Shown here in pieces: positions 6,882 through 62,189 of a stretch of 64,000 nt of DNA (positions are counted from its first letter, which is position 1; each line of letters opens with the position of its first letter). The notes under the pieces are model-generated. The model saw only the letters and a list, made by a program, of their open reading frames with translations. It was not told where the DNA came from and did not search any database. Source of the stretch: an uncultured bacterium (GTDB taxonomy: Bacteria; Verrucomicrobiota; Kiritimatiellia; RFP12; UBA1067); contig CADCGZ010000010.1 in NCBI GenBank assembly GCA_902801025.1, positions 1,551-65,550 on the forward strand. The letters are read 5' to 3'. The translations under genes were made by a program, and so were the position numbers.

Positions 6882-6945
6882 GCGCATTTTTCACGGTGGA
6901 TTTTGCGCAGAATTCACTGTTCCAGCTTCGCTCATATGGTATAAT
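6882..6945 (+). promoter_or_regulatory. Direct-repeat operator + extended -10 promoter, site a (drives the GH2-PA14 unit)
   Basis: GCGCATTTTTCAC (6882-6894) and GCGCAGAATTCAC (6905-6917) are phased 23 nt apart. N19 follows, then TGGTATAAT (6937-6945). Confidence 0.6.
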
Positions 6946-6974
6946 TCAAGCAGCGAACAAAAGGAGCATTCATC

Positions 6975-9900
6975 ATGGATAGAATCGACATTGCGGCGCT
7001 TGCGGCGCTCGCGGCGCTTCCGGTCATGGCGGGTTCTGTCGTGGACTTGTCCGGCAAAGGCTGGACGTGCGAGCAGAACGGGGTGACGAAGGAGGTGTCC
7101 GTTCCGGCGGACGTCGAGGAGTACTTCGCGGACATGTCCGCGTACGCCGCGCCGAGGATCGACGCAAGCCAGCACGGATCGTGGATCGTCAGGCAGTGGC
7201 TCAAGTGCAAGGGCGAGTCGACATGGCGCAGGAAGTTCACCCTGAAATCCAAGCCGGCCGGCAAGCGCATCGTCCTCATGTTCGAGTCCACGAGGTATTT
7301 CGCCGACATCTTCGTGAACGGGAAGTTCGTGCACCACGACGAGGCTCCTGACACGCCGTACGAGGTCGACATCACGGACGCGGCGAAGTCAGGCGAGAAC
7401 GAACTCCTCGTCAAGATCGTCAACCCCGAAGGCGGCGACTACGACTGGCGGGACTTCAACACCTGCAAGTGGGAGGGCAAGCAAATCCCCGGCGGACGCG
7501 CAATGGGCGGACTCTCCGGACGCGTGAAACTCGACGTGCGCGACATCGTCTCGATCGACGACGTATTCGTCCAGAACACGCCGGCGATCAGCGAGGTCGA
7601 GGTGTTCGTGTCCATCACCAATGCGGGAACCAAGGCGGAAAAGCGTCTGGTCAGGCTCGAGGTGGAGCCCAAAGGCGTCGTATTCTCGAAGGAGATGACG
7701 CTCCAGCCGGGACTTACGGTCGTGAGCGAAAAGGCGTCCGCTCCGGAGGCGAAGCTCTGGGACCTCGATAATCCCAACCTCTACAATGCAGTCGCGACGG
7801 CCGGCGGCGAAACCTTCCGGCGCGAGTTCGGCTACCGCTGGATCGCGCCGGAGGGAATCGGGACCAACGCAGTCCTCCGGCTCAACGGAAAGCGAATAGT
7901 CGTCCGCACCGCCATCGGCTGGGGATGGTATATGGGAAGCGGAACCGTCCCGAGCGACGAAGACGCGCGCCGCGAAGTCGCGACGGCCAAGGCTCTCGGA
8001 CAGAACGGAATAAGCTTCCACCGGCACAACGGTCAGGAGAACATCCTCCGCGAGGCCGACCGCAACGGCCTTCTCATATACGCGGAACCAGGCGCCTTCC
8101 AGGGCGGCCGGCATTCGGATATCGGACGGCGCATAGCGCTGGAGCGCGTGCGCAGGTGGGTGAAGGCGTTCCGCAGCCATCCCTCGCTCTTCCACTACAA
8201 CCTCATCAACGAGTTCGGCGACACGTGCGACGACGCGACGCGCAAGTTCTTCCTTGACGGCGTGAGGCTCGTCCATGAGCTCGATCCTTCACGCACGGTG
8301 ACGCTCATGAGCGCGTGGGGCAAAGACGGCATCAACGTCAGGCATTTCCCGAAGACCCACATGCGCCCGTTCGATCCGGAGCTGTACGAGTCCGGCTGGC
8401 GCGACTCCCATCGCGCAGGCGGACCGGTGATCGGCTGGAGCGCCGGAGCGTACCGCAACAAGGACGCGTACAACAACAGGTCCTCGAACCTCGAGGAGAT
8501 AGTGTACTGGGGCGAGGAGAGTGCCTTTACGGCTCCGCCGCGGCTGCAGCTCATCGTCGACGAACTTGACCGCCGCGGGCGCGACGGAACGGACGGCAGG
8601 GTGTTCCGCGTCTGGGCGGACATGGTGAACAAGTACCTCGACAGAAAGGGGCTGCGGGGGACGTATCCCACGCTCGACGCTTTCTGCCTCGACCTCGGGC
8701 GGCAGAGCCTGTTGCACCAGGGCCGCAACATCGAGCTAGTCCGGATGGACGACGTTGCGGACGGCTACGCAATCAACGGCTGGGAGTCGATGGTCGTGGA
8801 GAACAACTCCGGCATCGTCGACACGATGCGCAATCCCAAGGGCGAGCCGAAGTGGCTTGCCAAGTACAATGCTCCGCTCAAACTCTGCGTGAATTCCAAC
8901 CAGTCGAGGGTGAGAAAGGGCCAGAACATTTCGGTGGACGTCCACATAATCAACGAGGTCGACCTCAAGGGGCCCCAGAAACTCGTCGTGGAGCTGTGGA
9001 ATCTCGAGGGCGGGGAACGCAAACTCGCCGAGGAGCGGCGCGACGTCTCGGTGACTGGCGGAGAGCGCTTCGGGGAATTCCTCTCCGAAAAGATATCGTT
9101 CAACGTTCCGTTCGCCGGCGAGGGCGAGGTGCGCGCGCACCTGGAAGGCGTGAAGGATGCGACGGGCGACTTCCCGTTCACTTCGTTCGACCTCGCCATT
9201 CCCGAATTCCCCGCCGGATACAAAATCGCCGTGGCCGAGGCTGGAGACACCATTCTCAAATGGCTCCGCGGACAGAAGCTTCCGTGCGAAACCTACAAGC
9301 CCGGAGTAAAGGCCGACGTCGTGATCGTCTCCCGCCCGCCCGGCGCGCTGCCGGCGGTTCCGGACGCACAAAGCCTCGTTGGACAGCGCGGCACGCCGGG
9401 CGTGGTCGACGTCAGGTGGTACGTGGGCGAGAAGCTGGCGGCGGAGGATACCCGGAATTCTCTCGAAGTGGAATTTCCGCAGGGGGTTCCGCCCGCGAAA
9501 GGCGTAGATCTTACGACCGGTTATTCCGTCTGCGTCGCTGGCTGCTACGTCGCGAGGTGGGACGGACGCTACCGCTTCAGGATCGAAGGGCCCGACCGCA
9601 ACGCCGACATGCTAAAGTTCTTCTGGAACGGCGATGACGTGAAGTTCGACAGCGACGGCTACATGTCGGTTGAACTCAAGGCGGGAGATTCGATTCCGTT
9701 CTACATTACCATGACACAGCGGCGCGCGAAGAAACTGAGCGTCATCGCCGAGACCCCGGAGCCGGTCGAGGACTTTAATCCCGACGAGCTTGTCGCATGC
9801 GCAAAGAACGACGGCGCGCGGGTCGTGTTCGTCGACAACGTCAAGGTGTGGATGCCTGTTGTCGCAGACATGGTCGGCGTCAAGTACGACGGATGGTTCC

Positions 9901-10232
9901 ATATCGGGCAGAGCTGGCTCGGCGGCGCGTTCTTCACGAAGAAAGGCGATCCTCTCCTGGCGGGCTTCCCCGCAGGAGCCGTCAACGAGGCCTACGAGGA
10001 GATTGCCGGGCACGGCAGCCGCTACGGACTCTTCCTCGAAGGCGAGGATCTCGCGATGGGAGCGTGGCAGTGCGAGAACTGCAAACTCGGCACCGTCGTG
10101 GGACGCATTCCCTGCGGCAAGGGCGAGGTTGTCGTTTCCACGCTGAATCTGGTCAAAAGCCTCAATACATACGGCGGCACGCGCTATTTCTACAATCTTC
10201 TCACGCGCTCCGGCGCCGTTTCGCGCAAGTAA
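6975..10232 (+). CDS. Exported GH2-family glycosidase with C-terminal PA14-like domain
   Basis: SD AAGGAG at 6961-6966 and a signal peptide. GH2 sugar-binding block RIVLMFESTRYFADIFVNGKFVHHDE..YEVDIT. Candidate catalytic Glu motifs NLINEFGD and YWGEESAF. PA14-like block GRYRFRIEGPD..FFWNGDDV. Confidence 0.8.
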   Translation: MDRIDIAALAALAALPVMAGSVVDLSGKGWTCEQNGVTKEVSVPADVEEYFADMSAYAAPRIDASQHGSWIVRQWLKCKGESTWRRKFTLKSKPAGKRIVLMFESTRYFADIFVNGKFVHHDEAPDTPYEVDITDAAKSGENELLVKIVNPEGGDYDWRDFNTCKWEGKQIPGGRAMGGLSGRVKLDVRDIVSIDDVFVQNTPAISEVEVFVSITNAGTKAEKRLVRLEVEPKGVVFSKEMTLQPGLTVVSEKASAPEAKLWDLDNPNLYNAVATAGGETFRREFGYRWIAPEGIGTNAVLRLNGKRIVVRTAIGWGWYMGSGTVPSDEDARREVATAKALGQNGISFHRHNGQENILREADRNGLLIYAEPGAFQGGRHSDIGRRIALERVRRWVKAFRSHPSLFHYNLINEFGDTCDDATRKFFLDGVRLVHELDPSRTVTLMSAWGKDGINVRHFPKTHMRPFDPELYESGWRDSHRAGGPVIGWSAGAYRNKDAYNNRSSNLEEIVYWGEESAFTAPPRLQLIVDELDRRGRDGTDGRVFRVWADMVNKYLDRKGLRGTYPTLDAFCLDLGRQSLLHQGRNIELVRMDDVADGYAINGWESMVVENNSGIVDTMRNPKGEPKWLAKYNAPLKLCVNSNQSRVRKGQNISVDVHIINEVDLKGPQKLVVELWNLEGGERKLAEERRDVSVTGGERFGEFLSEKISFNVPFAGEGEVRAHLEGVKDATGDFPFTSFDLAIPEFPAGYKIAVAEAGDTILKWLRGQKLPCETYKPGVKADVVIVSRPPGALPAVPDAQSLVGQRGTPGVVDVRWYVGEKLAAEDTRNSLEVEFPQGVPPAKGVDLTTGYSVCVAGCYVARWDGRYRFRIEGPDRNADMLKFFWNGDDVKFDSDGYMSVELKAGDSIPFYITMTQRRAKKLSVIAETPEPVEDFNPDELVACAKNDGARVVFVDNVKVWMPVVADMVGVKYDGWFHIGQSWLGGAFFTKKGDPLLAGFPAGAVNEAYEEIAGHGSRYGLFLEGEDLAMGAWQCENCKLGTVVGRIPCGKGEVVVSTLNLVKSLNTYGGTRYFYNLLTRSGAVSRK

Positions 10233-10249
10233 AGAAAGGAGAACGAAAC

Positions 10250-10801
10250 ATGAAATTCCGCAAAGCAGTTCTTTCCGCGTTGATTGCCGCCGCAGCCTCT
10301 GCGGCGGCGGCGGACCAGGCCTCGCCGCGCCTCATCGGGCGCTTTTTCAGCGAGAAGAGCTCCCGGGAGGAGCACAGGCTCGGCATCGCCGCGTTCGCGG
10401 ACATAGACCTTTCCGGCGAGAGCGAGGATTCGCTTGAACTCGCCGGGGAGATCAGGGTCGATTGTCTGCATCCGAATGCGCCCAAGGACTCCGCCTGGAT
10501 GAAAAAGATATGCAACGGCAGGTTCTCCATCGCCGGGACGGACGGCAAGGACATTCAGGTCGCGCCGATGGGGTGCGGCATCGGCGTGCTCGCCGGATGC
10601 GACAAGGCCGACGAGTGGTTTCCCGTCAGCCTCAAGATCCCCCTGTCGCAGCTGAAAGGCTCGAGGATCACTAAACTCGAATTATTCATGTACAACGACA
10701 CCGCGGCGTACGCGCAGCATGCGGACGACGGCAACAAGTGGAACAACGGTTCCGGAATAAAGCTGCGTGCGCGCAATTTCCGCGTGCAGTCGGTCAGGTA
10801 A
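10250..10801 (+). CDS. Small secreted protein of unknown function (HPNAPKD / DGNxWNN domain)
   Basis: ATG at 10250 follows SD AAAGGAG. Signal peptide MKFRKAVLSALIAAAASAAAA. The mature part is homologous to the last ~165 aa of the 1432-aa GH3 (CLHPNAPKD, KIPLSQL, DDGNKWNNGSGIK). Confidence 0.6.
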   Translation: MKFRKAVLSALIAAAASAAAADQASPRLIGRFFSEKSSREEHRLGIAAFADIDLSGESEDSLELAGEIRVDCLHPNAPKDSAWMKKICNGRFSIAGTDGKDIQVAPMGCGIGVLAGCDKADEWFPVSLKIPLSQLKGSRITKLELFMYNDTAAYAQHADDGNKWNNGSGIKLRARNFRVQSVR

Positions 10802-10824
10802 AGTTAACTGGGTGCCATTTTCTT

Positions 10825-10833
10825 TGGTATAAT
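10825..10833 (+). promoter_or_regulatory. Extended -10 promoter (TGGTATAAT) upstream of the oxidoreductase unit
   Basis: TGGTATAAT lies at 10825-10833. A ~30-nt leader with GGGGATCGGAGAG precedes the ATG at 10872. No direct-repeat operator is present in register. Confidence 0.45.
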
Positions 10834-10871
10834 GCTGCCATAAACTAAAAAAAGGGGATCGGAGAGTCCAC

Positions 10872-12185: not shown

Positions 12186-12211
12186 GGAACGGACACGAAA
12201 GGATCTATGAA

Positions 12212-13561: not shown

Positions 13562-13609
13562 TCAATGGCCCACGCTTCGCGCGGGGATGTAAATAAAGAA
13601 AATGCAGAA

Positions 13610-16270: not shown

Positions 16271-16301
16271 CATGATTTAGTACAAGGAGGTAAAGCTGAA
16301 C

Positions 16302-24798: not shown

Positions 24799-24838
24799 GG
24801 CGCATAGTCGCCGTGATTGGCAAACGGATTTCTTCGTT

Positions 24839-24902
24839 GCGCATTTTTCACGATTATTTTTGCGAATAATTCGCGCAATGCTTGTCTGCCTTGTGGTACA
24901 AT
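24839..24902 (+). promoter_or_regulatory. Direct-repeat operator + extended -10 promoter, site b (drives the GH92...GH63 unit; leaderless)
   Basis: GCGCATTTTTCAC (24839-24851) and GCGAATAATTCGC (24862-24874), followed by N19 and TGGTACAAT (24894-24902). The ATG at 24909 is the predicted +1. Confidence 0.6.
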
Positions 24903-24908
24903 CCAAGC

Positions 24909-27062
24909 ATGAAAAAGAGAATGTGTACTTTTGCCGCTGTTGTTGCGGTGAGCTGTTCCGTCTTCGGACGCGATCCCGTCGACTGGGTTAACACGGAGAT
25001 CGGCACGATCAGCCACATGCTGGTGCCGTGCTTCCAGACTACTCAGCTCCCTAACGCCATGCTGCGTGTACTGCCGCCGTACCGCGACTACACGGACGAC
25101 CGCGTCTCCGCGATCTTCCTTCAGACCCCCGACCACCGCGGGCAGCAGGTCTTCGCGGTGCATCCGTTCTCGGGCGACGCGGAGCGGCTCGGCGCGCGCT
25201 GGAGCGGCACGTGGGACTCACCCCACTCGACGCCGTATTCATACGATGTGACGTTCGACTCCGAGTGCGTGAAGTTCTCGATCGTTCCCGCGCGGCAGAG
25301 CGCGCTTGCGTCGTTCGAGTTCCGCCGCGCGGACGCGGTGCACGCCGTGGTGTTCACGGGGCGCGACGCCGAGGTGAGGCTCGACGGCGCGCGTGTCGTC
25401 GCGAAGGACGTGCGGCGCGGACGCTACGCGGCGAGCGACGTCTGGCTTGCGGGCGAGTTCAGCCCGGCGCCCGTGGAGCTCCGCCGCGTCAACGACGGCT
25501 TTGCGCTCGTATTCGCGCCCGAGGCGAAGTCGGCGATGCTGAAGTACGGCATCTCCTACATCGACGCAGAGCAGGCGGCGCGCAACTGCGCGCGGGAGAT
25601 CTCGGGCTGGGACATGGCGGCGCTCGCCGCTACGGGCCGCAGGGCATGGAACGAGAAGCTCTCGAAGATCGAGGTAGAGGGCGGCACCGATGCCGAGAAG
25701 ACGGTCTTCTACTCCTCGCTCTGGCGCTGCTACGAACGCATGGTCAACGTCACGGAGGACGGGCGCTACCGCGGATGGGACGGCAAGGTTCACGAGACAG
25801 GAGGAGTGGACCAGTACACCGACGACTGGATGTGGGACACGTACCGCGCGCACCATCCGCTGATGGTGATCCTCGAGCCGAAGGCCGAGGCGGCGAAGCT
25901 CACGAGCTACATCCGCATGGCCGCCGAGAACAAGGAGAAGTGGATGCCCACGTTCCCGGGGATCAACTGCGACCAGCACTGCATGATCAACCACCACGCG
26001 GCCATTTCGTTCTACGACGCCTGGGTGAAGGGCGTGAGGGGCTTCGACCTCGCGGCCGCGTTCAAGGCGCTCGACTACACCGAGAAGACAGAGTCGCTCG
26101 TGCCGTGGTACCGCGGTCCGCTCACGGAGCTCGACCGGTTCTACGTCGAGAAGGGATATATGCCGGCGCTCAACCCCGGCGACAAGGAGACGTGCACCGC
26201 CGTCGACCAGAACTGGGAGAACCGCCAGACGGTCTCCGTGACGCAGGGCTCGAGCTACGACGCTTGGGCCATGTCGAAGATCGCCGCAATCGTCGGCGAC
26301 GCGGACGGCGTCAAGGAGTACGACCGCCGCTCGAAGTTCTACCGCAACCTGTGGGATCCGAAGACGAAGTTCTTCCGCCCCAGGAACGCCGCGGGCGAAT
26401 TCGTGGAGCCGTTCGACCCGATTATCTGCGGCGGGAAGGGCGCGCGCAGCTACTACACCGAGAACAACGCCTGGACGTACATCTGGGACGTGCAGCACGA
26501 CATCCCGCAGCTTGTCGAGTACCTCGGCGGGCCTGCTGGCATGGCGCGCAGGCTTGACGAGATGCTCAACACGTCCTGCGGAAACCGCTTCCGCTACACG
26601 GCCGAGATGCCGGACGGCGCGACGGGCATGATGGGCATGTTCACGATGGCGAACGAGCCCTCGTTCCACATCCCGTACCTCTACAACTTCGCGGGCGAGC
26701 CGCGCAAGACGCAGAAGTTCGTCCGCAAGACGCTCGACGCGTGGTTCCGCAACGACAGGATGGGCATGTGCGGCGACGAAGACGGCGGCGGAATGTGCTC
26801 CTACGCCGTGTTCTCGATGATGGGCTTCTATCCCGTGACGCCGGGCCTCCCCGAGTACCAGCTCGGCTCCCCGGTGTTCTCGAAGGTGACGATCCACCAG
26901 GAGAACGGCAAGTCGTTCGTCGTCGACGCTCCCAAGTCGAGCCGCGACGCTAAGTACGTCGCCTCTGCGACGATCGGCGGCAGTCCGCTTGTGGGCACGG
27001 CGATTCCGCACGCCGCGGTGGTGTCCGGCGAGACGCTCCGCCTTGAGATGACGGCTGAGTGA
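24909..27062 (+). CDS. Exported GH92 alpha-mannosidase
   Basis: Signal peptide MKKRMCTFAAVVAVSCSVFG. Blocks DWVNTEIGT and YRAHHPLM. MCGDEDGGGMCSYAVFSMMGFYPVTPG corresponds to the GH92 catalytic-region motif. Confidence 0.85.
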   Translation: MKKRMCTFAAVVAVSCSVFGRDPVDWVNTEIGTISHMLVPCFQTTQLPNAMLRVLPPYRDYTDDRVSAIFLQTPDHRGQQVFAVHPFSGDAERLGARWSGTWDSPHSTPYSYDVTFDSECVKFSIVPARQSALASFEFRRADAVHAVVFTGRDAEVRLDGARVVAKDVRRGRYAASDVWLAGEFSPAPVELRRVNDGFALVFAPEAKSAMLKYGISYIDAEQAARNCAREISGWDMAALAATGRRAWNEKLSKIEVEGGTDAEKTVFYSSLWRCYERMVNVTEDGRYRGWDGKVHETGGVDQYTDDWMWDTYRAHHPLMVILEPKAEAAKLTSYIRMAAENKEKWMPTFPGINCDQHCMINHHAAISFYDAWVKGVRGFDLAAAFKALDYTEKTESLVPWYRGPLTELDRFYVEKGYMPALNPGDKETCTAVDQNWENRQTVSVTQGSSYDAWAMSKIAAIVGDADGVKEYDRRSKFYRNLWDPKTKFFRPRNAAGEFVEPFDPIICGGKGARSYYTENNAWTYIWDVQHDIPQLVEYLGGPAGMARRLDEMLNTSCGNRFRYTAEMPDGATGMMGMFTMANEPSFHIPYLYNFAGEPRKTQKFVRKTLDAWFRNDRMGMCGDEDGGGMCSYAVFSMMGFYPVTPGLPEYQLGSPVFSKVTIHQENGKSFVVDAPKSSRDAKYVASATIGGSPLVGTAIPHAAVVSGETLRLEMTAE

Positions 27063-35135: not shown

Positions 35136-35149
35136 GGGATTTTCAAACT

Positions 35150-37213: not shown

Positions 37214-37226
37214 TTGGCGATTGACG

Positions 37227-43369: not shown

Positions 43370-43407
43370 CCCTAGATGCTGAAATAGATAGTGCATCCGC
43401 TGCCTTT

Positions 43408-43471
43408 GCGCGATTCTCATGGATTTTTTTACGCTGGCTTCACTTGTTGCTGTTTTAGAATATGATATAAT
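43408..43471 (+). promoter_or_regulatory. Direct-repeat operator (degenerate) + extended -10 promoter, site e
   Basis: GCGCGATTCTCAT (43408-43420) and a second TTCAC at 43439-43443, in 23-nt phase with the first. N19 follows, then TGATATAAT (43463-43471). Confidence 0.5.
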
Positions 43472-43517
43472 TCTCGAAAAGTCGTTTTGCGCCATAATTC
43501 ACTGAGATAATAGAATC

Positions 43518-45857
43518 ATGAAAACATTATTCAGACAACTGCTGGTCCCGGCCGCTGTCTTTGCGACTGCTGTCGCGTGCGCCGACGGTGGAGCGCAACC
43601 GTTCGACCTCTCCGATGTCGCGCCGTCGCGCTGCATCGCCGGAAACACCGAGGCGGGAACTCCTTCGGCCTACAACAATCGCGGCGCGGTGTACGCATTC
43701 AACGGAAGCGGCATCGCCGACGACGGAACATGCGGAGTTGATGCCAACAACGCAATGTTCATGCTGTCATCGAACAACTCAGGATCATTCCCGTGGTACA
43801 TCCAGGTCGATCTCGGCAAAGTCGTCCGCCTCGACGGCGTGAGGCTCTACAACTTCAACTTCGCCGCGGGCGGTAAGTCCTACACGGAGCGCGGCGTCAG
43901 GGAGTTCAAGCTGTACGTCTCGACCGGCGACGCGTGGAAGATGTCGGCAGCCGACATCCAGTCGAACTATTCGCTCGTCCTCTCCAACCGCCTCGCGCGT
44001 GCAACCGGCACTGCCGACTACAAAGGCGAGTATTTCTCGTTCGACAAGCCCGCCGCCGCGCGGTATGTAGCGCTCGTCGCGCTTGACGACTGGGACGATG
44101 GAAAGGCAGTGTTGAACTACAACGGCATCTCCGAGATTCAGCTCTTCCCTGCGGCGGATATGCCGCGCTTCTCCGTCTGCTGCGTCGGCGACTCGATAAC
44201 GGAGGGTGCGAACTATGCCGGAGCGGCGCACAAGTGGACGTACCGCACGTACCTTTCCGCAATGATCGCCGAGAGCGGATTCGGCGACGTCGAATGGAAG
44301 GGCTCGCATGTTTCGCCGAATTCCGGCAACGATCTTCCGAACGAAGGCTGGAGCGGAACGAACGCGGCGGAAATTGCCTCGCAATACATTGCAAACGCAG
44401 AAAACGATAGGGCGGATGTCCTTCTCCTCCATGCCGGACACAACTACAACGTCGATCCAGATACTGCCAATCCTGCGTACAGGCCAGAAGCGCAGATAAT
44501 CGCCGCCGCGACGAATGCTCACGCGCGCATCATAGACGCGGCTCGTGCGCAGAATCCGAATGTCACGGTTCTTTACGCGAAGGTGATTACGAGCGGAAAG
44601 CTCCCCAAGTACAGCTACATCCCCGCGCTCAACGACGCAATAGGCGCGCTTGCCGCCGAACTGAACACCGCTGCCTCGCCGGTACGCGTCGTAGACATGG
44701 CTGACGGATGGGACTGGACAGTTCACTGCATCGACGACAAGGTTCATCCGACGGAGACCGGAGCGCGGCTCATGGCGTCGAAGTGGTTTGCCGCGCTTGC
44801 GGCGTCGCCGTTCATGAGCGGAACGGATGCGCTCGTCGAGGCGGAGTCGTTTGCGGCGAAGGGCGGATGGGTCGTCGATCCGCAGTTCGTCGACGTGATG
44901 GGCTCGCCGTATCTTCTCGCGCACGGCATGGGCGAACCTGTCGCAGATGCGGCGACGAGTGTCGAGTTCGGCTTCGGCGGACTCGTCCGCGCATGGGTTC
45001 GTACCCGCGACTGGACTCCAGACTGGGATGGCGAGAAGCCTGGGCGCTTCCGCCTCGCCGTCGGCGGAGCTACGCTTCCCTCTACACTCGGCGTATCCCC
45101 TGCCGACTGGGGATGGGTTGATGCGGGGATCATCCGCGTCGCGGCAGGTCCGCAGACTGTCTCTCTTAAGGACCTCACGGGATTCGAGGGACGCTGCGAC
45201 GCCGTGTATTTCACTTCTGTCGCCGCGACGAATCCGCCCCCGAACGATGCCGCCTCGCTCGCCGCGTGGCGCGCGGAGAAGCGCGGCGAATCCGCCGCGC
45301 CCGAAGATGTCGTCAATGCCGATCTCGTTGTCGTAGGCGGAGGAATCGCCGGCGTGTGCGCTGCAATCGCGGCGGCGGATGCGGGACTCTCTGTCGCGAT
45401 TGTGCATGACCGTCCGATGCTCGGCGGAAACGCTAGCGACGAAATTCGCGTACGGACGGAGAACGAAGGCGACGAATTCCACTGGATCGTCAAGGCTGTT
45501 CGCAACAACACGGTAAACGCTGCGGACAAGAAAGCCGACGACGCCAACAGACTTGCGGTCGTCGAGTCGTACGGCATCGACTCGCACCTCGGCTGGCGCG
45601 CGTACGGAGTCGAGACGAACGCGCAGCGGAAGATTGTCGCGGTTGATGCACGGAACATCGAAACTGGCGCGAGGCGCAGGTTCGTCGCGCCGCTCTACGT
45701 GGACTCGACGGGCGACGGTTGGATCGGATACTGGGCGGGAGCTGAATTTATGCTCGGACGAGAGGCGAAGACTGAGTTCGACGAGCCGACGCACGGACAG
45801 GACGTACGGGCGAGGCCGATTATGTGTTCCCGTCCGTTCCGTGGGCGACAAAGGTGA
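43518..45857 (+). CDS. Multidomain protein, N-terminal fragment: discoidin-like + SGNH/GDSL esterase + CBM-like + N-half of an FAD-dependent oxidoreductase (frame interrupted)
   Basis: Blocks WYIQVDLGKVVRLDGVRLYNF, CVGDSITEGANY...DDKVHPTETG, and the dinucleotide fold DLVVVGGGIAGVCAAIAAADAGLSVAIVHDRPMLGGNAS. The last ~25 codons look out of frame. Confidence 0.7.
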   Translation: MKTLFRQLLVPAAVFATAVACADGGAQPFDLSDVAPSRCIAGNTEAGTPSAYNNRGAVYAFNGSGIADDGTCGVDANNAMFMLSSNNSGSFPWYIQVDLGKVVRLDGVRLYNFNFAAGGKSYTERGVREFKLYVSTGDAWKMSAADIQSNYSLVLSNRLARATGTADYKGEYFSFDKPAAARYVALVALDDWDDGKAVLNYNGISEIQLFPAADMPRFSVCCVGDSITEGANYAGAAHKWTYRTYLSAMIAESGFGDVEWKGSHVSPNSGNDLPNEGWSGTNAAEIASQYIANAENDRADVLLLHAGHNYNVDPDTANPAYRPEAQIIAAATNAHARIIDAARAQNPNVTVLYAKVITSGKLPKYSYIPALNDAIGALAAELNTAASPVRVVDMADGWDWTVHCIDDKVHPTETGARLMASKWFAALAASPFMSGTDALVEAESFAAKGGWVVDPQFVDVMGSPYLLAHGMGEPVADAATSVEFGFGGLVRAWVRTRDWTPDWDGEKPGRFRLAVGGATLPSTLGVSPADWGWVDAGIIRVAAGPQTVSLKDLTGFEGRCDAVYFTSVAATNPPPNDAASLAAWRAEKRGESAAPEDVVNADLVVVGGGIAGVCAAIAAADAGLSVAIVHDRPMLGGNASDEIRVRTENEGDEFHWIVKAVRNNTVNAADKKADDANRLAVVESYGIDSHLGWRAYGVETNAQRKIVAVDARNIETGARRRFVAPLYVDSTGDGWIGYWAGAEFMLGREAKTEFDEPTHGQDVRARPIMCSRPFRGRQR

Positions 45858-47308
45858 GCGGAAACCGCGCGGACACGAGCGGCGGCTGGACATGGGAAGC
45901 GGGGCTCGATCCCGACGAGGATACGATCTACGACGCCGAGATGCTCCGCGACAGGCTTTTCCGCGCGATCTACGGAAGCTTCTCCAACACGAAGGCCAAG
46001 GCCGGGAACGAGAAGCTCGTGTTCAACTGGGTGCCGTACATCGCGGGCAAGCGCGAGTCGCGCCGCATCGTCGGCGACTACGTCGTCCGGGAGAAGGACA
46101 TCGTCAACCACCGTCCGTTCGAGGATGCGATCGGCATCGCGACGTGGTCCGTCGACCTGCACCGCAAGGACGGAAACTCCGGCTTCATCGCCGCGACGAC
46201 GCACTACAGATACGGCAGGTGGTGGATGCCGTACCGCTCGCTCTGCTGCCGCGACGTGCCGAACCTCTTCCTCGCCGGACGCTGCGCGAGCTACACGCAC
46301 GTCGCGTTCGGTTCGAGCCGCGTGATGCACGCCGGCGGACAGCAGGGCGTCGCGGCGGGATATGCGGCGTCGCTCTGCAAGAAGTACGCGTGCCGTCCGC
46401 GCGAAATCTACCGCGACCCCGCGAAGACGGCCGAGCTCCAGGCGCTCATCAACAAGAAAAACGAATACACATGGCCGAAGGTGGAGACGTCGAGGGAAAT
46501 CGCTTCGGTAATCGTCGACAATGCGGACGCGTCGGGCGTCGAGATTTTCGGCGAGTGGCCGGTAAGCAACTACAACTCCGACCGCTATGGAGCGGACTAT
46601 CTCCACAACAATAAGATCGCGTCGAACGATCTGTGGGTCAGATTCACTCCGGAGATACCGTCGAACGCGACTTATGTCGTGTCGCTTTTCTGGAACGGAG
46701 GCGACTCGCGCGGATCGGCTGTTCCAGTCGAAATTGTCTATGACGGAGGCGTCGCGACCAATTTAGTCGACATGACGCGCAAGTCGTCCGTCTGGAACGC
46801 GATCGGCAGATGGCCGTTCAAGAAGGGGAATTCGGGGTCTGTGCGGATTCTAACCAACGGACAGAAGGACAAGACCGTCATCGCCGATGCGGTTAAGTTC
46901 GCGATCGTGGAGGAGCTCGATCCTCAGGACCTCGACGGGAACGGCTTGCCTGACGCGTGGGAGCGCAGGCATTTCATGCAGAACGGCGGAGTCGACCCGA
47001 AGGCCGACCCGGACGGCGACGGGTTCTCGAACCGCGAGGAGTATCTTTCAGGGACCGATCCGAACGACGCGGGGTCGCCGCTTTATCTTTCGGATTTCGG
47101 TGCGTCCGGCTCGGAGGTATCAATCTCGTGGAAGGACCTCGCGGGGCGGACCTACCGCGTGTACAGTTCTGAAACGCTTGATCTCGCGTCGTTCAAGCCT
47201 TATGGCGGATTTGTCGAAGGGACGAACGGGGAGATGAAGATTTCGTTGCAGTCAGCTTCGCCTTTGGCATTCTTCCGCGTCCGCGACGAGTCAATGTCCA
47301 TGGAGTAA
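45824..47308 (+). CDS. Multidomain protein, C-terminal fragment: C-half of the FAD-dependent oxidoreductase + CBM/golvesin-like domain + TSP3-type Ca-binding repeats
   Basis: Blocks WVPYIAGKRESRRIVGDYVV and LFLAGRCASYTHVAFGSSRVMHAGGQQGVAAG continue the FAD domain begun in the upstream ORF. TSP3-type block DLDGNGLPDAWE..DPDGDGFSNREEYLSGTDPND. Confidence 0.7.
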   Translation: MFPSVPWATKVSGNRADTSGGWTWEAGLDPDEDTIYDAEMLRDRLFRAIYGSFSNTKAKAGNEKLVFNWVPYIAGKRESRRIVGDYVVREKDIVNHRPFEDAIGIATWSVDLHRKDGNSGFIAATTHYRYGRWWMPYRSLCCRDVPNLFLAGRCASYTHVAFGSSRVMHAGGQQGVAAGYAASLCKKYACRPREIYRDPAKTAELQALINKKNEYTWPKVETSREIASVIVDNADASGVEIFGEWPVSNYNSDRYGADYLHNNKIASNDLWVRFTPEIPSNATYVVSLFWNGGDSRGSAVPVEIVYDGGVATNLVDMTRKSSVWNAIGRWPFKKGNSGSVRILTNGQKDKTVIADAVKFAIVEELDPQDLDGNGLPDAWERRHFMQNGGVDPKADPDGDGFSNREEYLSGTDPNDAGSPLYLSDFGASGSEVSISWKDLAGRTYRVYSSETLDLASFKPYGGFVEGTNGEMKISLQSASPLAFFRVRDESMSME

Positions 47309-50529: not shown

Positions 50530-50550
50530 AGGCGCCTGCTTTTTTGCCCT

Positions 50551-50614
50551 GCGTAAATTTCACGATATTTTCTGCGTTGTGTTCACGCAGCAGAAATGTG
50601 CTATATGCTATAAT
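50551..50614 (+). promoter_or_regulatory. Direct-repeat operator + extended -10 promoter, site c (drives GH3-E; leaderless)
   Basis: GCGTAAATTTCAC (50551-50563) and GCGTTGTGTTCAC (50574-50586), followed by N19 and TGCTATAAT (50606-50614). The ATG at 50621 is the predicted +1. Confidence 0.6.
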
Positions 50615-50620
50615 GAAAAC

Positions 50621-52675
50621 ATGAAAACTGTAAAAATCATGTTGGCGGGCGCGGCGGCTGTAGCTGTTGCGCAGGTTATGGCGATGCCGGGCGCGTCAAG
50701 GCGCGCCGAGGCCGAGGCCCAGGCCAAGGCTATCTTCGAGAGGCTTGCGCCGAACGATGTCGTCTCGATGCTGATGATGGACAACGTCGAGATCAAGGAT
50801 CCGGCGATTCCCCGCCACCACTGGTGGAACGAGGGCCTCCACGGAGTCGCGCGCGCGGGCCTCGCGACGATGTTCCCGCAGACGATCGGGCGCGCCGCGA
50901 CGTTTGACGCAGAACTGGAGCACAAGGTCGGCGACGTCATATCGACCGAGGCGCGCGCCAAGCACAACCTCTTCCGCGCGAAGGGACTTCGCGGAATCTA
51001 CACCGGACTTACGTACTGGAGCCCCAACGTAAACATGTTCCGTGACGCCCACTGGGGCCGCGGACAGGAGACTTTCGGCGAGGACCCGTACCTCGCCGGC
51101 GTCATGGGCACGGAGTTCGTCAAGGGCCTCCAGGGCGATGACCCGAAGTTCATCAAGATCGCCGCGTGCGCCAAGCACTACGCCGTCCACTCGGGCCCCG
51201 AGAAGCTGCGCCACGAGTTCAACGTCGACCTCGACATGCGTGACCTCTACGAGTACTATCTTCCCGCGTTCAGGATGCTCGTCGTCGACGGGAAGTGCGA
51301 GCAGGTCATGGGAGCCTACTCGGCTGTCAACGGAATCCCGTGCTGCGCGAGCAAGTTTCTCCTCAGGGACGTCCTCCGCGGCGAGTGGGGCTTCCGCGGC
51401 ACGGTCGTTAGCGATGTGGGCGCGGTCAACGACGTGTCCGCGAACCACAAGTACACCAAGACCAAGGTCGAGGGGTGCCTTGCGACGATCGCGGGCGGAC
51501 TCGATATCTGCAGCGAGGGCACGTACGACTGCCTGCGCGCCGAGGTGCGCGAGGGACGCGTCACGAAGGAGCAGCTGCGCGAGCCAGTGCTGAACATCCT
51601 CACGACTCGCATCCTTCTCGGCAACATCGGCGACGTGAAGACGCCGTGGGACGGCCTCGGCGAAAATGACGTCGCGACGCCCGAGAACAAGGAGCTTGCG
51701 CTCCAGTGCGCCGACGAGTCGATGGTCCTCCTCAAGAACGACGGAATCCTCCCGCTCGACGTCTCCAAGCTCAAGGCAGTCCGCGTCTGGGGCCGAGAGG
51801 ACGACGTCAAGCCGCTCGTCGGCAACTACGAGGGCTCCGCGAGCGTCTACATGACGGCGCGCGCAGGCCTTGCCGCCGAACTCGGTGCCGGCGTCGCCAT
51901 CGAGGGCGACCACGCCGAGTACTCCGTCGCAATCCTCGGGCTCAATCCCGGCGACGAAGGCGAAGGGCACGACAAGCGTGACTGCAGCATGCACAAGAAC
52001 CATATTGAGCAGTTGAGGAAGTGGCAGGGCGAGCGCAAGCGCCGTCCGATCATCACCGTCCTCTACGGCGGCAGCCCGATAGAGATCAAGGAGGTCTGCG
52101 AGCTTTCCGACGCGGTCATCTTCGCGTGGTATCCGGGCGAGCAGGGCGGACGTGCCATCGCGCGCGTGATCACCGGAAAGGTCAATCCCGCGGGACGCCT
52201 CCCGATTACGTTCATGGAGAACTACGCGGAAGAGGCCGACCTCACGGACTACAAGCTCCCCGGCCGCACCTACCTCTACGCGACGAAGAAGCCGCTCTTC
52301 CCGTTCGGCTACGGGCTCAGCTACACGACGTTCGGATATGACGGACTCAAGGTCTACAAGACCAAGGACGGAGTCGCCGCCACGGTCAAGGTGACGAACA
52401 CAGGCAAGCTCGCGGGCGATGAAGTCGTCCAGCTCTACGTCCGTTCGCCCGAAGGCTCCGGCGACCGCCGCGTCCACCACCTCGAGGGCTTCAAGCGCGT
52501 GAGCCTCAAGCCGGGCGAGTCGAAGAACGTGTCCTTCGCGCTCACGAAGGCGCAGTTGATGCAGTTCGGCATGGACGGAAAGCAGTCGCTCGCGAATGGC
52601 GAGTACACCGTCTTCGTCGGCGGCGGACAGCCCGGCTTCGCAGACGGCGTCCTCTCCGCGAAGACAAGCTTCTGA
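50621..52675 (+). CDS. Exported GH3 glycosidase, paralog E
   Basis: The track ORF (50378) runs through the promoter; I trimmed it to MKTVKIMLAGAAAVAVAQVMA. Blocks HHWWNEGLHG, KHYAVHSGPE, GTVVSDVGAV. Confidence 0.85.
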   Translation: MKTVKIMLAGAAAVAVAQVMAMPGASRRAEAEAQAKAIFERLAPNDVVSMLMMDNVEIKDPAIPRHHWWNEGLHGVARAGLATMFPQTIGRAATFDAELEHKVGDVISTEARAKHNLFRAKGLRGIYTGLTYWSPNVNMFRDAHWGRGQETFGEDPYLAGVMGTEFVKGLQGDDPKFIKIAACAKHYAVHSGPEKLRHEFNVDLDMRDLYEYYLPAFRMLVVDGKCEQVMGAYSAVNGIPCCASKFLLRDVLRGEWGFRGTVVSDVGAVNDVSANHKYTKTKVEGCLATIAGGLDICSEGTYDCLRAEVREGRVTKEQLREPVLNILTTRILLGNIGDVKTPWDGLGENDVATPENKELALQCADESMVLLKNDGILPLDVSKLKAVRVWGREDDVKPLVGNYEGSASVYMTARAGLAAELGAGVAIEGDHAEYSVAILGLNPGDEGEGHDKRDCSMHKNHIEQLRKWQGERKRRPIITVLYGGSPIEIKEVCELSDAVIFAWYPGEQGGRAIARVITGKVNPAGRLPITFMENYAEEADLTDYKLPGRTYLYATKKPLFPFGYGLSYTTFGYDGLKVYKTKDGVAATVKVTNTGKLAGDEVVQLYVRSPEGSGDRRVHHLEGFKRVSLKPGESKNVSFALTKAQLMQFGMDGKQSLANGEYTVFVGGGQPGFADGVLSAKTSF

Positions 52676-54113: not shown

Positions 54114-54129
54114 TCCAAATTCCACCTCG

Positions 54130-54135
54130 TATAAT
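54130..54135 (+). promoter_or_regulatory. Possible -10 box (TATAAT) upstream of GH3-F
   Basis: TATAAT lies at 54130-54135, 21 nt before the ATG at 54157, with AAAGGAA in between. There is no TGn extension and no in-register direct repeats. Confidence 0.3.
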
Positions 54136-54156
54136 TCACATCAAAGGAACTAATAC

Positions 54157-56202: not shown

Positions 56203-56214
56203 ACTAACTTTTAC

Positions 56215-57639: not shown

Positions 57640-57704
57640 CCTCCTTGGACCAGGTATCGTTAAAGTAGCATAGTCGCACAATTTAAATTCTGAAAGTTAA
57701 ACAC

Positions 57705-59144: not shown

Positions 59145-59176
59145 GCAAGTTGAACTATGAGCATCAGGTCAAGCTT

Positions 59177-59195
59177 GGCGGCGCTGTTCGCCGCC
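59177..59195 (+). terminator. Hairpin after the GH43 gene (possible weak terminator)
   Basis: GGCGGCG-ctgtt-CGCCGCC gives a 7-bp stem. The T-rich run starts only ~15 nt downstream, so its function is uncertain. Confidence 0.3.
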
Positions 59196-59216
59196 ATACT
59201 GCGTCCTCTTTGTTTT

Positions 59217-59225
59217 TGTTACAAT
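59217..59225 (+). promoter_or_regulatory. Extended -10 promoter (TGTTACAAT) upstream of the GH95 gene
   Basis: TGTTACAAT lies at 59217-59225. A ~45-nt leader with SD AAGGGAG (59264-59270) precedes the ATG at 59277. No direct-repeat operator is in register. Confidence 0.4.
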
Positions 59226-59276
59226 GTCTTACGTGGGATGTGAGAAGGCCCACACAAGTAATTAAGGGAGTACACA

Positions 59277-62144
59277 ATGAGAAATCCGTTGGTTGCCTTG
59301 TCTGCGGTCGTATTTGCGGCAATCGTTGCTGCGGCTGCGTTGCCGACGTTCGCGGACGGGCTGCCCGTTAATCCTGAACTGCCGGTTTCGTTCGGCGTCA
59401 ACTCTCGCGGAGGCGACAGGCTGAAGGGCGAGTTCCTCGACGCCGCCGTATATTCGACCGTGCTCACGCCCAAGACGATCGAGGCGGCGGCAAGGGGCGT
59501 GAAGCCGTCCGTGAAGCCGCTTTGGTCCGGCGTCCCCAAGGCGGGCGACAAGTGCGAGGAGGTGCGCACGGCGAAGTTCCCGCGCGGGTTCACGTTCCTC
59601 GCGACGATCCGCACCGCAGGCGTCGAGACGGCGAGGCTCCTCGACAACGAGGTGCCGGGCAAGGGCGAGGGGTGGATCATCGACCTCATCCAGAACAGGC
59701 TGAGAGTCGTCATACAGGGCGGCAACACGCAGTTCTTCGACGCGCCCATCCCGGCCGACAAGCCTGTGCACGTTGCGGTCACGTACCCCGGAAGCGGAGA
59801 CGAGTACGGCATCTTCGTCGAGGGCAAGCGGCACCGTCCGCTGCCGCCGCCTGCCCTCAAGCCGGCGAGGAAGGGGATGGAGCTGTTCGCGGACCGTCCG
59901 GCGAAGGTGTGGACCGAGGCGTATCCGATCGGCAACGGACGGCTCGGCGGCATGATCTACGGCGGGGACGCGAAGGAGCTGATACCGATCAACGAGGACA
60001 CCATCTGGTCCGGCGGCCCCGGCCAGAACGTTACCGAGGGCATAGGTCCCGACTCGTTCGCCAAGGTCCGGGAGGCGATCTTCGCCGGCGAATACCAGGC
60101 GGAGAAGGAGATCCTGCCGAAGGGCTACCGCGGTTCAAGCGCGTACGAGTACTTCGGCAAGCTCGAGATCGACTTCGGCGACGAAGCGGAGACGGAGGAG
60201 TACGAGCGCACTCTTTCGCTTGACTCGGCGGTTGCGCGCGTGGAGCTCACGCGCGGCGGGGTGAAGTACATCCGCGAGGCGTTCGCGAGCTTCACCGACG
60301 ACGTCATTGTCTGGAGGGTTGCGGCGTCCGAGAAGGGCGCGGTCTCCTTCAAGGCCCGCATACTTCCGCCGTGGAAGGACCGAGCCGTCGTTTCCGAAGG
60401 GAACGACTCGATCGTATACCGCGACAAGACCGAGGGCAAGGGTGTGTTGAAGTTCGAGGGCATAGTGAAGGGCGTAGCGAAGGGCGGACGCATGTCCTCG
60501 GAGGGCGGCGTGCTCACTGTCGAGAACGCGGACGACGTAATCCTCTATATCTCGGTCGGCACGAACTTCAGGAACTTCCGCGACCTTTCCGGCGACGCGC
60601 GCGCAAAGGCGCTCGGCAAGCTCGCTGCCGCGATGAAGAAGCCATACGCCAAGGCGAAGGCGGACCATGTCGCGTTCTACAAGGGACAGGCCGACCGCTG
60701 CACGCTCTACCTCGGACGCGATCCGAGTCCGGGGAAGACGACGTTCGAGCGTCTTCAGGGCTTCGCCGAAACAGGCGATCCCTACCTTGCGGCGCTGTAC
60801 TTCCGCTTCGGACGCTACCTTCTCATCTCCGGCTCGCAGCCGGGAACGCAGCCGCTCAACCTTCAGGGAATCTGGAACGACAGCCGCTGGCCGCCGTGGG
60901 CGGGCAACTACACCGTGAACATCAACACGGAGATGAACTACTGGCCGGCGGAGCCAACGGGCCTCGGCGATCTCGCGGAGCCCATCTGGAAGATGTGCGA
61001 CGAGCTCGCCATCACAGGCGCCGAGGCCGCGCGCGACGTCTACGGCGCGAAGGGCTGGGTGACGCACCACAACACCGACATCTGGCGCATTGCATGGCCG
61101 GCTGGTCCGCGCGGATGCGGCACGTGGCCGTCGGGCGGCGCGTGGCTTTCGATGCACATCTGGTACCACTACCTCTACACGCTCGACAAGGCGTTTCTCG
61201 CCAAGCACTACGAGACGCTCAAGGGCGCGGCGGAGTTCTACCTCTCGTACATGGTGAAGGATCCTGTCAGCGGTAAGATGACCGTCGTGCCGTCGTGCAG
61301 CCCCGAGAACGGAATCCCCGGACTCGGCACGGACCACGGCCCCGGCAACACGATGGACCATGCGATCGCGCGCGACATAGTCAACGTCGTCGCCGATGCG
61401 ACCGAGATACTCGGCAAGGACAAGTCGTACGCGAAGAAGCTGCGCGCGTTCGCGGCCGAGATCGAGCCGTACCACGTAGGCAAGTGGGGTCAGCTGCAGG
61501 AGTGGAGCCGAGACTGGGACAATCCGCGCGACACACACCGCCACACCTCGCACCTCTACGGACTCTACCCCTCGTCCCAGATCACGAAGTCCGCGACCCC
61601 CGAGCTTTTCGAGGCGGCGAAGACGTCGGTCGAACACCGCGGCGACCGTTCGACGGGCTGGGCGATGGGCTGGCGCGTGTGCCTCTGGGCGCGCCTCCTC
61701 GACGGCAACCACGCCTACACGCTGCTGCGCAACCAGCTGACGCTTGTAGGCGAGAAGGGGACGGACTACGGCACGCCGGGATCGGGCGGAACGTATCCGA
61801 ACCTCTTCGACGCGCATCCTCCGTTCCAGATCGACGGCAACTACGGCTGCACGGCAGGCATCGCGGAGATGCTCATGCAGAGCCACGAGCGCACGAAGGA
61901 CGGGAAGGTGCTCATACGCCTTCTGCCCGCGCTTCCCGACGCGTGGCCCGACGGATGCGTGAAGGGCCTTCGCGCGCAGGGAGGGTATACCGTCGACATA
62001 ACCTGGATGCAGGGAAAGATCATCGACTACAAGGTGACTGGCGGCGATCCCAAGGGCTACTGTCTGGTCCTGACGGCGCAGATCGGCGACGCGGTGGACG
62101 AGGTGGCGAATAGTGTCCGCGGCGCTGCGCATTTTTCACGATGA
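59277..62144 (+). CDS. Exported LamG-like domain + GH95 alpha-L-fucosidase-type glycosidase
   Basis: Blocks YPIGNGRLGGMIYGG, NLQGIWND, TVNINTEMNYWPAE, HTSHLYGLYP, FDAHPPFQIDGNYG. The last codons overlap operator site d. Confidence 0.85.
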   Translation: MRNPLVALSAVVFAAIVAAAALPTFADGLPVNPELPVSFGVNSRGGDRLKGEFLDAAVYSTVLTPKTIEAAARGVKPSVKPLWSGVPKAGDKCEEVRTAKFPRGFTFLATIRTAGVETARLLDNEVPGKGEGWIIDLIQNRLRVVIQGGNTQFFDAPIPADKPVHVAVTYPGSGDEYGIFVEGKRHRPLPPPALKPARKGMELFADRPAKVWTEAYPIGNGRLGGMIYGGDAKELIPINEDTIWSGGPGQNVTEGIGPDSFAKVREAIFAGEYQAEKEILPKGYRGSSAYEYFGKLEIDFGDEAETEEYERTLSLDSAVARVELTRGGVKYIREAFASFTDDVIVWRVAASEKGAVSFKARILPPWKDRAVVSEGNDSIVYRDKTEGKGVLKFEGIVKGVAKGGRMSSEGGVLTVENADDVILYISVGTNFRNFRDLSGDARAKALGKLAAAMKKPYAKAKADHVAFYKGQADRCTLYLGRDPSPGKTTFERLQGFAETGDPYLAALYFRFGRYLLISGSQPGTQPLNLQGIWNDSRWPPWAGNYTVNINTEMNYWPAEPTGLGDLAEPIWKMCDELAITGAEAARDVYGAKGWVTHHNTDIWRIAWPAGPRGCGTWPSGGAWLSMHIWYHYLYTLDKAFLAKHYETLKGAAEFYLSYMVKDPVSGKMTVVPSCSPENGIPGLGTDHGPGNTMDHAIARDIVNVVADATEILGKDKSYAKKLRAFAAEIEPYHVGKWGQLQEWSRDWDNPRDTHRHTSHLYGLYPSSQITKSATPELFEAAKTSVEHRGDRSTGWAMGWRVCLWARLLDGNHAYTLLRNQLTLVGEKGTDYGTPGSGGTYPNLFDAHPPFQIDGNYGCTAGIAEMLMQSHERTKDGKVLIRLLPALPDAWPDGCVKGLRAQGGYTVDITWMQGKIIDYKVTGGDPKGYCLVLTAQIGDAVDEVANSVRGAAHFSR

Positions 62145-62189
62145 TTTTTGCGCGTTCCTCAAGTTGAGGAGACATAGTTTTGGTACAAT
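62127..62189 (+). promoter_or_regulatory. Direct-repeat operator + extended -10 promoter, site d (drives the LTD/PA14 gene)
   Basis: GCGCATTTTTCAC (62127-62139) and GCGCGTTCCTCAA (62150-62162), followed by N18 and TGGTACAAT (62181-62189). Confidence 0.55.

Follow-up and report, generated by a model that had tools for sequence, protein, structure and literature searches.

The 64,000-nt stretch of DNA analysed here (hereafter the window), from contig CADCGZ010000010.1 of an uncultured Kiritimatiellia bacterium (assembly GCA_902801025.1), carries five promoters that share a single upstream architecture: an asymmetric unit of 15 nt, T-GCGC-N4-TTCAC-G, which occurs twice with a 23-nt period, leaving an 8-bp spacer, at a nearly fixed distance from an extended -10 box. 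We favour the reading, with a probability of roughly 60%, that this block is the tandem operator of one trans-acting factor, arranged in the geometry of an activator and serving a regulon of secreted glycan-degrading enzymes and surface proteins. As such it adds a new and well-supported cis-regulatory motif to a phylum about which little is known, even if a factor site made of tandem direct repeats is in itself a textbook matter.

The five sites, a, b, e, c and d in their order along the window, are present as a first-pass annotation of the same DNA had quoted them, all on the + strand and all intergenic. A degenerate pattern over both repeats, with up to three mismatches allowed, finds exactly these five sites in the window, every one on the + strand, against a chance expectation of 0.08 (100 dinucleotide shuffles, of which 0 reached five), so that the common layout first proposed can be taken as real. 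When both strands of the window were scanned with a 36-nt position weight matrix (PWM), sites a to e scored 33-52 bits; the next-best match, at 13.8 bits, is the reverse-strand overlap of site a, and no independent match above 14 bits occurs elsewhere in the window on either strand. Site e is the degenerate member of the set, with the consensus broken at three otherwise near-invariant positions, and its sequence is identical in sibling assemblies. The box itself is more widespread, since TGNTAYAAT has 8 copies in the 64 kb (+ strand 6937, 10825, 24894, 43463, 50606, 59217 and 62181; - strand 488), all eight of them intergenic and shortly upstream of a gene start, and the repeat block precedes five. 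Promoters 562, 10825 and 59217 lack the repeats, as had been noted before, and so does the promoter at 488 on the - strand. The motif is thus restricted to a subset of the promoters and defines a sub-regulon, as the first-pass annotation had argued.

A profile of 25 non-redundant promoters, numbered from the motif start as position 0, gives a detailed view of the block. Position -1 and positions 26 onward had no part in detection; the distal half-site GCGC-A-w-t-TTTCACG (positions 0-13) and the following r-T-n-a-TTTTT (positions 14-22) were used in detection, and their conservation is in part imposed. Position -1 is T in 23 of the 25 promoters, and the G that follows CAC is found in all 25 distal repeats, where it belongs to the detection core, and in 17 of the proximal ones, where it is unconstrained. 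The proximal half-site, GCGC-nnnn-TTC-a-C-G (positions 23-36), keeps T31 in 19, T32 in 21, C33 in 20, C35 in 18 and G36 in 17 of 25 promoters, and is followed by a 16-nt spacer (positions 37-52) that holds almost no information. Then come a T at position 53 (22/25), 2 nt upstream of the TG, and the box TGnTAtAAT at positions 55-63, with T55 and G56 each in 24/25 and T58, A59, A61, A62 and T63 each in at least 23/25; further on, C69 (17/25) precedes an A or G at position 70 (24/25). The extended TnTGnTAtAAT recalls the TRTG motif found around -16 in Gram-positive promoters. The boxes have the make-up of extended -10 promoters of the sigma-70 type, with TG one base before a TATAAT-like hexamer near a gene start.

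The repetition is direct and strictly phased. When positions -1 to 13 are compared with positions 22 to 36 (offset 23), the profile correlates with itself at r=0.92, and any other offset gives 0.40 or less (0.32 at 21, 0.20 at 10, 0.26 at 11), which bears out both the direct repeat and the 23-nt phase claimed at the outset; of the 13-nt length then given to the repeat, only the repeat itself stands, since the flanking T and G are also conserved and the unit measures 15 nt. Within one promoter the distal and proximal units share on average 10.3 of 15 bases, the distal half-site being nearly always the stronger (~23 versus ~16 bits). Positions 0 and +23 are the only places where half-sites are found, both pointing the same way, and no third phased half-site appears systematically upstream or downstream. 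Each is built asymmetrically of two parts around an A/T-rich linker, and it is not a palindrome, being self-complementary at only 6 of 15 positions. Readings of the block as a palindrome, either GCGCA-N17-TGCGC or a dyad within the half-site, were rejected: the positions that would be symmetric hold different bases, and positions 16-17 are variable.

Distance to the box is the second invariant. Among 20 distinct promoters that were not selected on spacing, 18 have the -10 block starting at +55; site d has it at +54 and one other promoter at +56, in keeping with the fixed distance described by the first reading. From the end of the repeats there are 19 nt to the extended -10 box and 21 nt to its hexamer, and the block never overlaps the box or the start. 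The TTCAC sequence was also considered as a -35 hexamer and rejected, since it lies 21-22 nt from the -10 hexamer; the PfkB promoter at 562 has TTGAAG at the normal 17 nt, which indicates that housekeeping spacing is standard. A distance of 21-22 nt between -35 and -10 elements is known from ExsA-type promoters.

Pattern scans of public genomes and metagenomes, together with loci retrieved by protein homology (all numbered with the prefix L), added more than 30 further distinct promoters, which, one probable chance match aside, all face a signal-peptide gene downstream (for a glycoside hydrolase, an esterase or a giant surface protein). The genome scan used a strict pattern of the distal core, GCGYAWWTTTCACGRTNNWTTYYGCG, on one genome per species (185,579 species, 596 Gb), and returned 15 matches where about 0.5 would be expected by chance in 596 Gb, according to our own arithmetic with uniform base composition. 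All of them fall in three metagenome-assembled genomes (MAGs) of Kiritimatiellae, one under the older label Verrucomicrobia, with nine of them on a single 263-kb contig; they all differ in sequence from the window, and among them are seven new promoters as well as orthologues of sites a-d in a changed gene order. Fourteen of the 15 matches face, on their own strand and 70-144 nt further down, the start of an open reading frame (ORF) that encodes a signal peptide; the fifteenth (L008) is too near the locus end for an ORF call. The targets include SASA and GDSL esterases, a GH2-PA14 protein and large repeat proteins. For the JGI metagenomes, the fixed elements were limited to TTTCACG, TTT, GCG and the -10 box, with positions 0-6 and the proximal repeat left free. 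This pattern recovered 25 distinct sequences, one of which (L043) is AT-rich, has no usable downstream ORF and is probably a chance match; in the others the free positions are conserved anyway, with GCGC at 0-3 and the proximal TTC-C-G. Downstream ORFs were found for all but L043 and L046, and these encode secreted enzymes or giant surface proteins, never regulators.

Two loci not selected on the motif tell the same. L054 and L055 were fetched through a GH43 protein with 57-58% amino-acid identity: in L054, a contig with largely housekeeping genes, the motif stands before a GH43 and a GH3 gene and is missing from the other six TGnTAnAAT promoters, and in L055 it precedes three units of carbohydrate-active enzymes (CAZymes). 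The association between presence of the motif and a secreted-CAZyme target is significant (Fisher p=2e-4). No motif is carried by the loci brought in by homologues P0008 and P0025, whose source organisms are unrelated (a Firmicute and a V-ATPase contig).

A motif scattered without regard to genes would have pointed to a generic repeat, as the first-pass annotation had warned; both scans, save for L043, found matches only before gene starts and in the correct orientation. A copied or mobile promoter cassette, or a repeat element of that sort, whose likeness would come from copying and not from selection, is accordingly a highly improbable account of the block: no copy was met within a gene or pointing the wrong way, the spacer hardly ever gains or loses bases, and certain positions stay near-invariant next to flanks and a 16-nt spacer that show no conservation. 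Spacers with a free sequence and a nearly invariant length argue for selection on distance rather than common descent. Some promoters do look homologous outside the motif: the spacer begins with ttgttgc both at site e and in the L035/L044 family, and site d shares leader features with L006, L008 and L050 though the target genes differ. The least probable of all the readings is an RNA-level element for processing or attenuation within read-through transcripts of a co-directional gene array. Sites b-e do lie in same-strand gaps of 90-150 nt with no strong terminator between, and GCGCA...TGCGC could pair as a 5-bp stem; that stem is short and shows no covariation, however, and leaves both the conserved proximal TTCAC and the fixed -10 distance unexplained. 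Moreover, site a comes after the strong bidirectional terminator hairpin at 6751-6794 that separates it from the first operon, and an Rfam scan of the window gave no match.

Altogether, the pattern of near-invariant positions broken up by free ones, the confinement to promoters, in one orientation and before one class of genes, and the persistence of the block at less than 60% protein identity make it very likely, on the sequence evidence, that it is a protein site. The asymmetric and bipartite half-site suggests protomers lined up head-to-tail that either have two reading heads or read about 13 bp each; protein binding, activation and the two heads per protomer are what we infer from this arrangement.

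The start of transcription can be proposed from the same alignment. The -10 box, the conserved CA and the ATGs of leaderless genes would place it at position 70, about 7 nt past the hexamer. With this putative start the half-site centres would fall at about -64 and -41, and the proximal half-site would span about -48 to -34, abutting or overlapping the -35 region; 31.5 bp, or three turns of the helix, separate its centre from that of the -10 hexamer. In some ten promoters (sites b and c, L005, L023:22048, L028, L032, L034, L046, L049 and L055:9907) an ATG stands exactly at position 70; their mRNAs would then be leaderless, which lends the putative start independent, if indirect, support. The GH92 gene (24894-24911), the GH3 gene of site c (50606-50623), the GntR-type regulator gene (473-488, - strand) and several other secreted enzymes have an ATG exactly 6 nt past the hexamer and no Shine-Dalgarno sequence, and leaderless mRNAs are predicted for all of these. 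Public gene callers shortened the starts of the GH92 protein (713 versus 717 aa) and the GH3 protein (678 versus 684 aa).

Under the activator reading, two protomers would bind head-to-tail on the two 15-bp half-sites, the strong one near -64 and the weak one near -41, and the protomer on the weak proximal site would reach region 4 of sigma or the alpha subunit and so aid RNA polymerase. This would be the geometry of class II activation, as in XylS at Pm or AraC at araI1-I2, and in this way a single factor could coordinate secreted glycan-degrading enzymes and large surface proteins across a clade of uncultured rumen and gut Kiritimatiellae. What speaks for activation or recruitment over simple occlusion is the near-fixed spacer length, which suggests a stereospecific contact with RNA polymerase. 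The near-invariant -10 spacing, which the first-pass annotation had used in part, is a better argument than the missing -35 hexamer on which it also leaned. The latter is weak, as no -35 hexamer can be recognised at motif-less promoters either (10825, 59217 and six in L054), the one at 562 alone showing TTGAAG at 17 nt, so that its absence does not mark motif promoters as activator-dependent. The class II activator claim itself, like any assignment of the factor to a family, is a proposal drawn from the geometry.

Several observations weigh against an activator. To the shared lack of a -35 hexamer are added the -10 boxes, which are near-consensus extended -10 elements, a type of promoter that works without an activator in model bacteria; the period of 23 bp, compared with 21 bp for XylS and AraC; and the failure to find a suitable regulator. 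For this last point, a panel of phmmer probes (MarA, the C-terminal domain of AraC, AgrA, PhoB, NarL, LacI, RpoE and CRP) was run on 292 candidate ORFs of the collected loci, about 186,000 residues; it detected only GntR-PBP1 proteins and one orphan OmpR-type response regulator, and no gene of the AraC, LytTR or LuxR type, the LysR, TetR, MerR and Xre types not having been searched for.

Since the near-consensus boxes may be active by themselves, a repressor stays a real rival, if an unlikely one: a factor on tandem sites would keep extended -10 promoters, otherwise constitutive, silent in the absence of a glycan signal. The boxes are near-perfect TGnTATAAT and promoters of this lineage generally do without a -35 hexamer, which makes basal activity plausible. 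Looping or a roadblock could be served by an extra half-site downstream of the site e box (43485-43502) and by an inverted half-site upstream of site a (6804-6818), the latter kept in MAG202. A repressor would not explain so easily why the -10 distance is held to the single nucleotide over 20 unrelated promoters, something rare for repressor sites, nor why the block stops 19 nt short of the extended -10 box with no overlap with box or start. The two additional half-sites may be auxiliary. That of site e, TTTTGCGCCATAATTCAC, is part of the 5' leader, its linker exceeding the usual length by one base; the inverted one stands ~65-78 nt ahead of site a and is kept in the MAG202 orthologue (L011).

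The fixed distance and orientation with respect to the -10 box would also suit an upstream element intrinsic to the polymerase, read by the alpha C-terminal domains or by a sigma variant with no separate regulator. Such an element would also account for the lack of any regulator gene nearby, and the T-tracts at -65 to -61 and -52 to -48 coincide with the positions of UP-element subsites. This explanation appears quite improbable, since UP elements are A/T-rich stretches at -40 to -60 with no G/C-specific positions and the best-conserved positions of the block are G and C (GCG, CACG). The block is, moreover, missing from motif-less promoters on the same contigs (four in the window, six in L054), and these carry the same -10 box, which disfavours an alternative sigma factor.

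The activator, or whatever factor reads the block, is probably encoded elsewhere in the genome, as had been supposed from the start; this agrees with the absence of AraC-, LytTR- and LuxR-type genes from the 292 ORFs. None of the more than 35 genes downstream of motif promoters is a regulator, and no divergent regulator gene accompanies any motif promoter. Inspection covered 54 ORF clusters, with Pfam run on the ORFs around L027 and L029, which are part of the loci, and yielded no candidate. The OmpR-type gene (L027:1-639) lies among Lnt, ParA-like and GT2 genes, a housekeeping context. GntR-PBP1 genes occur in the window (1-473) and in L029, where a 47%-identical paralogue is found, both beside sugar kinase and transporter genes. 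The intergenic region of the window gene (474-579) has no half-site of at least 13 bits, and neither it nor the gene bears the motif, in agreement with the first reading. It holds instead, between the divergent GntR and PfkB promoters, the palindrome CAACCTGC-CAAA-GCAGGTT (AACCTGC-N4-GCAGGTT, 508-526), likely the operator of the GntR-PBP1 (AraR-like) regulator and unrelated to the motif, which is not palindromic and hence does not qualify as a GntR/AraR-type operator. The neighbouring GntR-PBP1 protein was therefore rejected as the factor, its own region carrying a different palindrome and the L029 paralogue being located inside a motif-driven operon by a transporter and a kinase; both proteins look like local regulators of sugar catabolism. 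L029 has a 719-aa ORF (L029:11573-13729) in which the N-terminal domain of an FGGY-type sugar kinase is joined to a GntR-PBP1 regulator. This ORF ends a motif-driven operon, after an MFS sugar transporter, and could be a fusion or an unrecognised frameshift.

The individual sites follow the common plan, all on the + strand. The first-pass annotation had the right -10 boxes and quoted the end coordinates as their positions; the full spans are given here. Site a consists of the distal half-site gGCGCATTTTTCACG (6881-6895, centre about -64, 19.3 bits), the proximal half-site TGCGCAGAATTCACt (6904-6918, centre about -41, 18.9 bits) and the extended -10 box TGGTATAAT (6937-6945), with a predicted start at A6952, preceded by C, and drives a GH2 gene (6975-10232). 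In site b, the pair TGCGCATTTTTCACG-N8-TGCGAATAATTCGCG (24838-24875, 25.0 + 15.3 bits) is followed by the box TGGTACAAT (24894-24902) and, after 6 nt, by ATG 24909, with a predicted leaderless mRNA for the GH92 gene (24909-27062), to which GH31 and further genes succeed. The degenerate pair of site e, TGCGCGATTCTCATG-N8-TACGCTGGCTTCACt (43407-43444, 33.3 bits with the PWM, 3 mismatches), precedes the box TGATATAAT (43463-43471), a predicted start near 43478 and an F5/8-GDSL-FAD-Golvesin gene that starts at 43518. Site c, TGCGTAAATTTCACG-N8-TGCGTTGTGTTCACG (50550-50587, 23.4 + 16.7 bits), has the box TGCTATAAT (50606-50614) and ATG 50621 after 6 nt; the mRNA predicted from it is leaderless and runs from the GH3 gene (50621-52675) into the downstream genes up to 59144. 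Site d, TGCGCATTTTTCACG-N8-TGCGCGTTCCTCAAg (62126-62163, found with the pattern and the PWM), keeps the box TGGTACAAT (62181-62189) at a spacing of 54, not 55; the start is predicted at A62196, and the target is an LTD/CotH giant-protein gene at 62271, after a leader of 75 nt. At 62126-62144 the distal half-site of site d overlaps the last six codons and the stop (62142-62144) of the GH95 gene. The leader of site d can fold into a hairpin at 62202-62246 (CTGCCAAGCC...GGCTTGGCAG). The leaders of L006, L008 and L050, whose target is a different gene (a GDSL esterase), have a comparable hairpin along with the CAAGGAGnnGTTTGCAATG ribosome-site region, and among the four sequences the hairpin has one compensatory pair only.

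All genes of the window are on the + strand save the GntR-type regulator (1-473, -). The motif-less promoter 562 heads an operon of sugar kinase, permease, nucleoside-hydrolase-like, YitT and AbgT genes, and is followed by site a with its GH2 gene. Promoter 10825, again with no motif, serves oxidoreductase, GH2, SASA esterase, GH3 and pectate-lyase-like genes; site b the GH92 and GH31 genes, an unknown protein of 1185 aa, four GH3 paralogues and a GH63-like gene; and site e the F5/8-GDSL-FAD protein and a GH2. Site c precedes GH3, a GDSL/3-keto-disaccharide hydrolase, a second GH3, GH30 and GH43, promoter 59217 (no motif) a GH95 gene, and site d the LTD/CotH protein of 2105 aa. The four tandem GH3 paralogues (32949-41440) are 687-728 aa long, and three more GH3 genes lie at 17837, 50621 and 54157.

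With the exception of two deletions, the window equals a contig of a rumen metagenome (ERZ28613875 scaffold_145, Kiritimatiellae). A stretch of 73 nt of scaffold_145 is missing from the window between 6745 and 6751, directly before the terminator hairpin, the remainder of that 710-nt gap around 6750 being identical in both. The second loss, of 46 nt at 45805/45806 with respect to the otherwise identical sibling assemblies L057 and L058, splits the intact 1278-aa F5/8-GDSL-FAD-Golvesin gene, the target of site e, into overlapping ORFs (43518-45857 and 45824-47308). Some 480 nt at 6265-6750 have no called gene and no Rfam match, and contain GGTTGAG three times (6509, 6520 and 6570).

The Kiritimatiellae are abundant and mostly uncultured glycan degraders of rumen and gut, and we found no literature on transcription control, promoters or regulators of this kind in them. 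Owing to its high information content and its fixed -10 distance, the motif allows co-regulated enzyme sets to be read directly from metagenome bins. The fixed architecture also predicts transcription starts without RNA data and flags leaderless genes misplaced by gene callers, and the 36-bp block could be used as bait for affinity capture of the regulator. One operator heading operons of many enzyme families points to a global control and not to one exerted substrate by substrate, unlike the Bacteroidota model of locus-specific regulators. Of greater interest, if true, would be that the motif is one master switch for the secreted CAZyme repertoire. In this bolder version, which we regard as rather unlikely, a single master factor would turn on the greater part of the secreted CAZymes and surface proteins (GH2, GH3, GH31, GH43, GH92, esterases and giant adhesin-like proteins), replacing the substrate-specific regulators of polysaccharide utilisation loci through one 23-bp-phased operator, with leaderless translation as a part of the programme. 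Such a factor would come from a DNA-binding family new to sugar control, or would be a lineage-specific protein associated with the polymerase.

Among known systems, the repeats of LytTR regulators measure 9-12 bp, with spacers of 12-13 bp and a period of 21-22 bp, and the VirR box CCAGTTnTnCAC also ends in CAC; the motif departs from them with its unit of 15 bp, its spacer of 8 bp and its period of 23 bp. Regulators of this family (AgrA, VirR, ComE) bind as dimers to pairs of direct repeats upstream of promoters with sub-optimal -35/-10 geometry (PMC4227749). The proximal repeat of AgrA is centred near -60 (PMC4227749), that of the motif at -41. A period of 10-11 bp, as for OmpR/PhoB, is not seen either, the profile correlations at these offsets being 0.20 and 0.26. 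In LysR-type systems a recognition site near -65 is combined with an activation site near -35 to -45, and the regulator gene is usually divergent beside its target. The motif recalls them in its strong site near -65, its weaker one near -41 and a T-N11-A formally present in each half-site, and it differs from their dyad-symmetric sites in its conserved asymmetry and in having no divergent regulator, the panel having included no LysR probe. Class II sites of CRP/FNR, which keep a set distance from the start with their centre near -41 and let one global factor serve many sugar-utilisation operons, offer another parallel, although these are palindromes of 22 bp and the motif is a direct repeat, which sets it apart from CRP/FNR.

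The closest likeness is found in the AraC/XylS family. In the araI1-araI2 sites of AraC and the marboxes of MarA, SoxS and Rob, the half-sites are bipartite and asymmetric around an A/T-rich linker, the distal one being strong and the proximal one, on the -35 region, weak, and there is a link to sugar use. The motif shares with these the strong distal and weak proximal half-sites near -35, the bipartite build, the A/T-rich linker and the connection with sugar utilisation, whereas its recognition blocks are 8-9 bp apart instead of 10-11 bp. Of the features typical for the family, the asymmetric and bipartite direct repeat of 15-17 bp is therefore present; the 21-bp period is not, every promoter having 23 bp, and no protein of the family, whose members bind with two helix-turn-helix motifs, turned up among the 292 candidate ORFs. 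The XylS repeats at Pm extend from about -70 to -35, as those of the motif would. Two XylS monomers bind there head-to-tail to two direct repeats of 15 bp (box A-N6-box B) that overlap the RNA polymerase site (PMC5481539). The differences from this promoter of the Pseudomonas putida TOL plasmid concern the period (23 versus 21 bp), the sequence (GCGC-N4-TTCAC versus TGCA-N6-GGTA) and the range, since XylS controls one operon and the motif heads dozens. No family membership can be claimed for the factor on these comparisons, and what the motif resembles is tandem activation of the AraC/XylS kind, with 15-bp direct repeats laid out as a 5' box, a linker and a 3' box, the proximal one overlapping the polymerase site.

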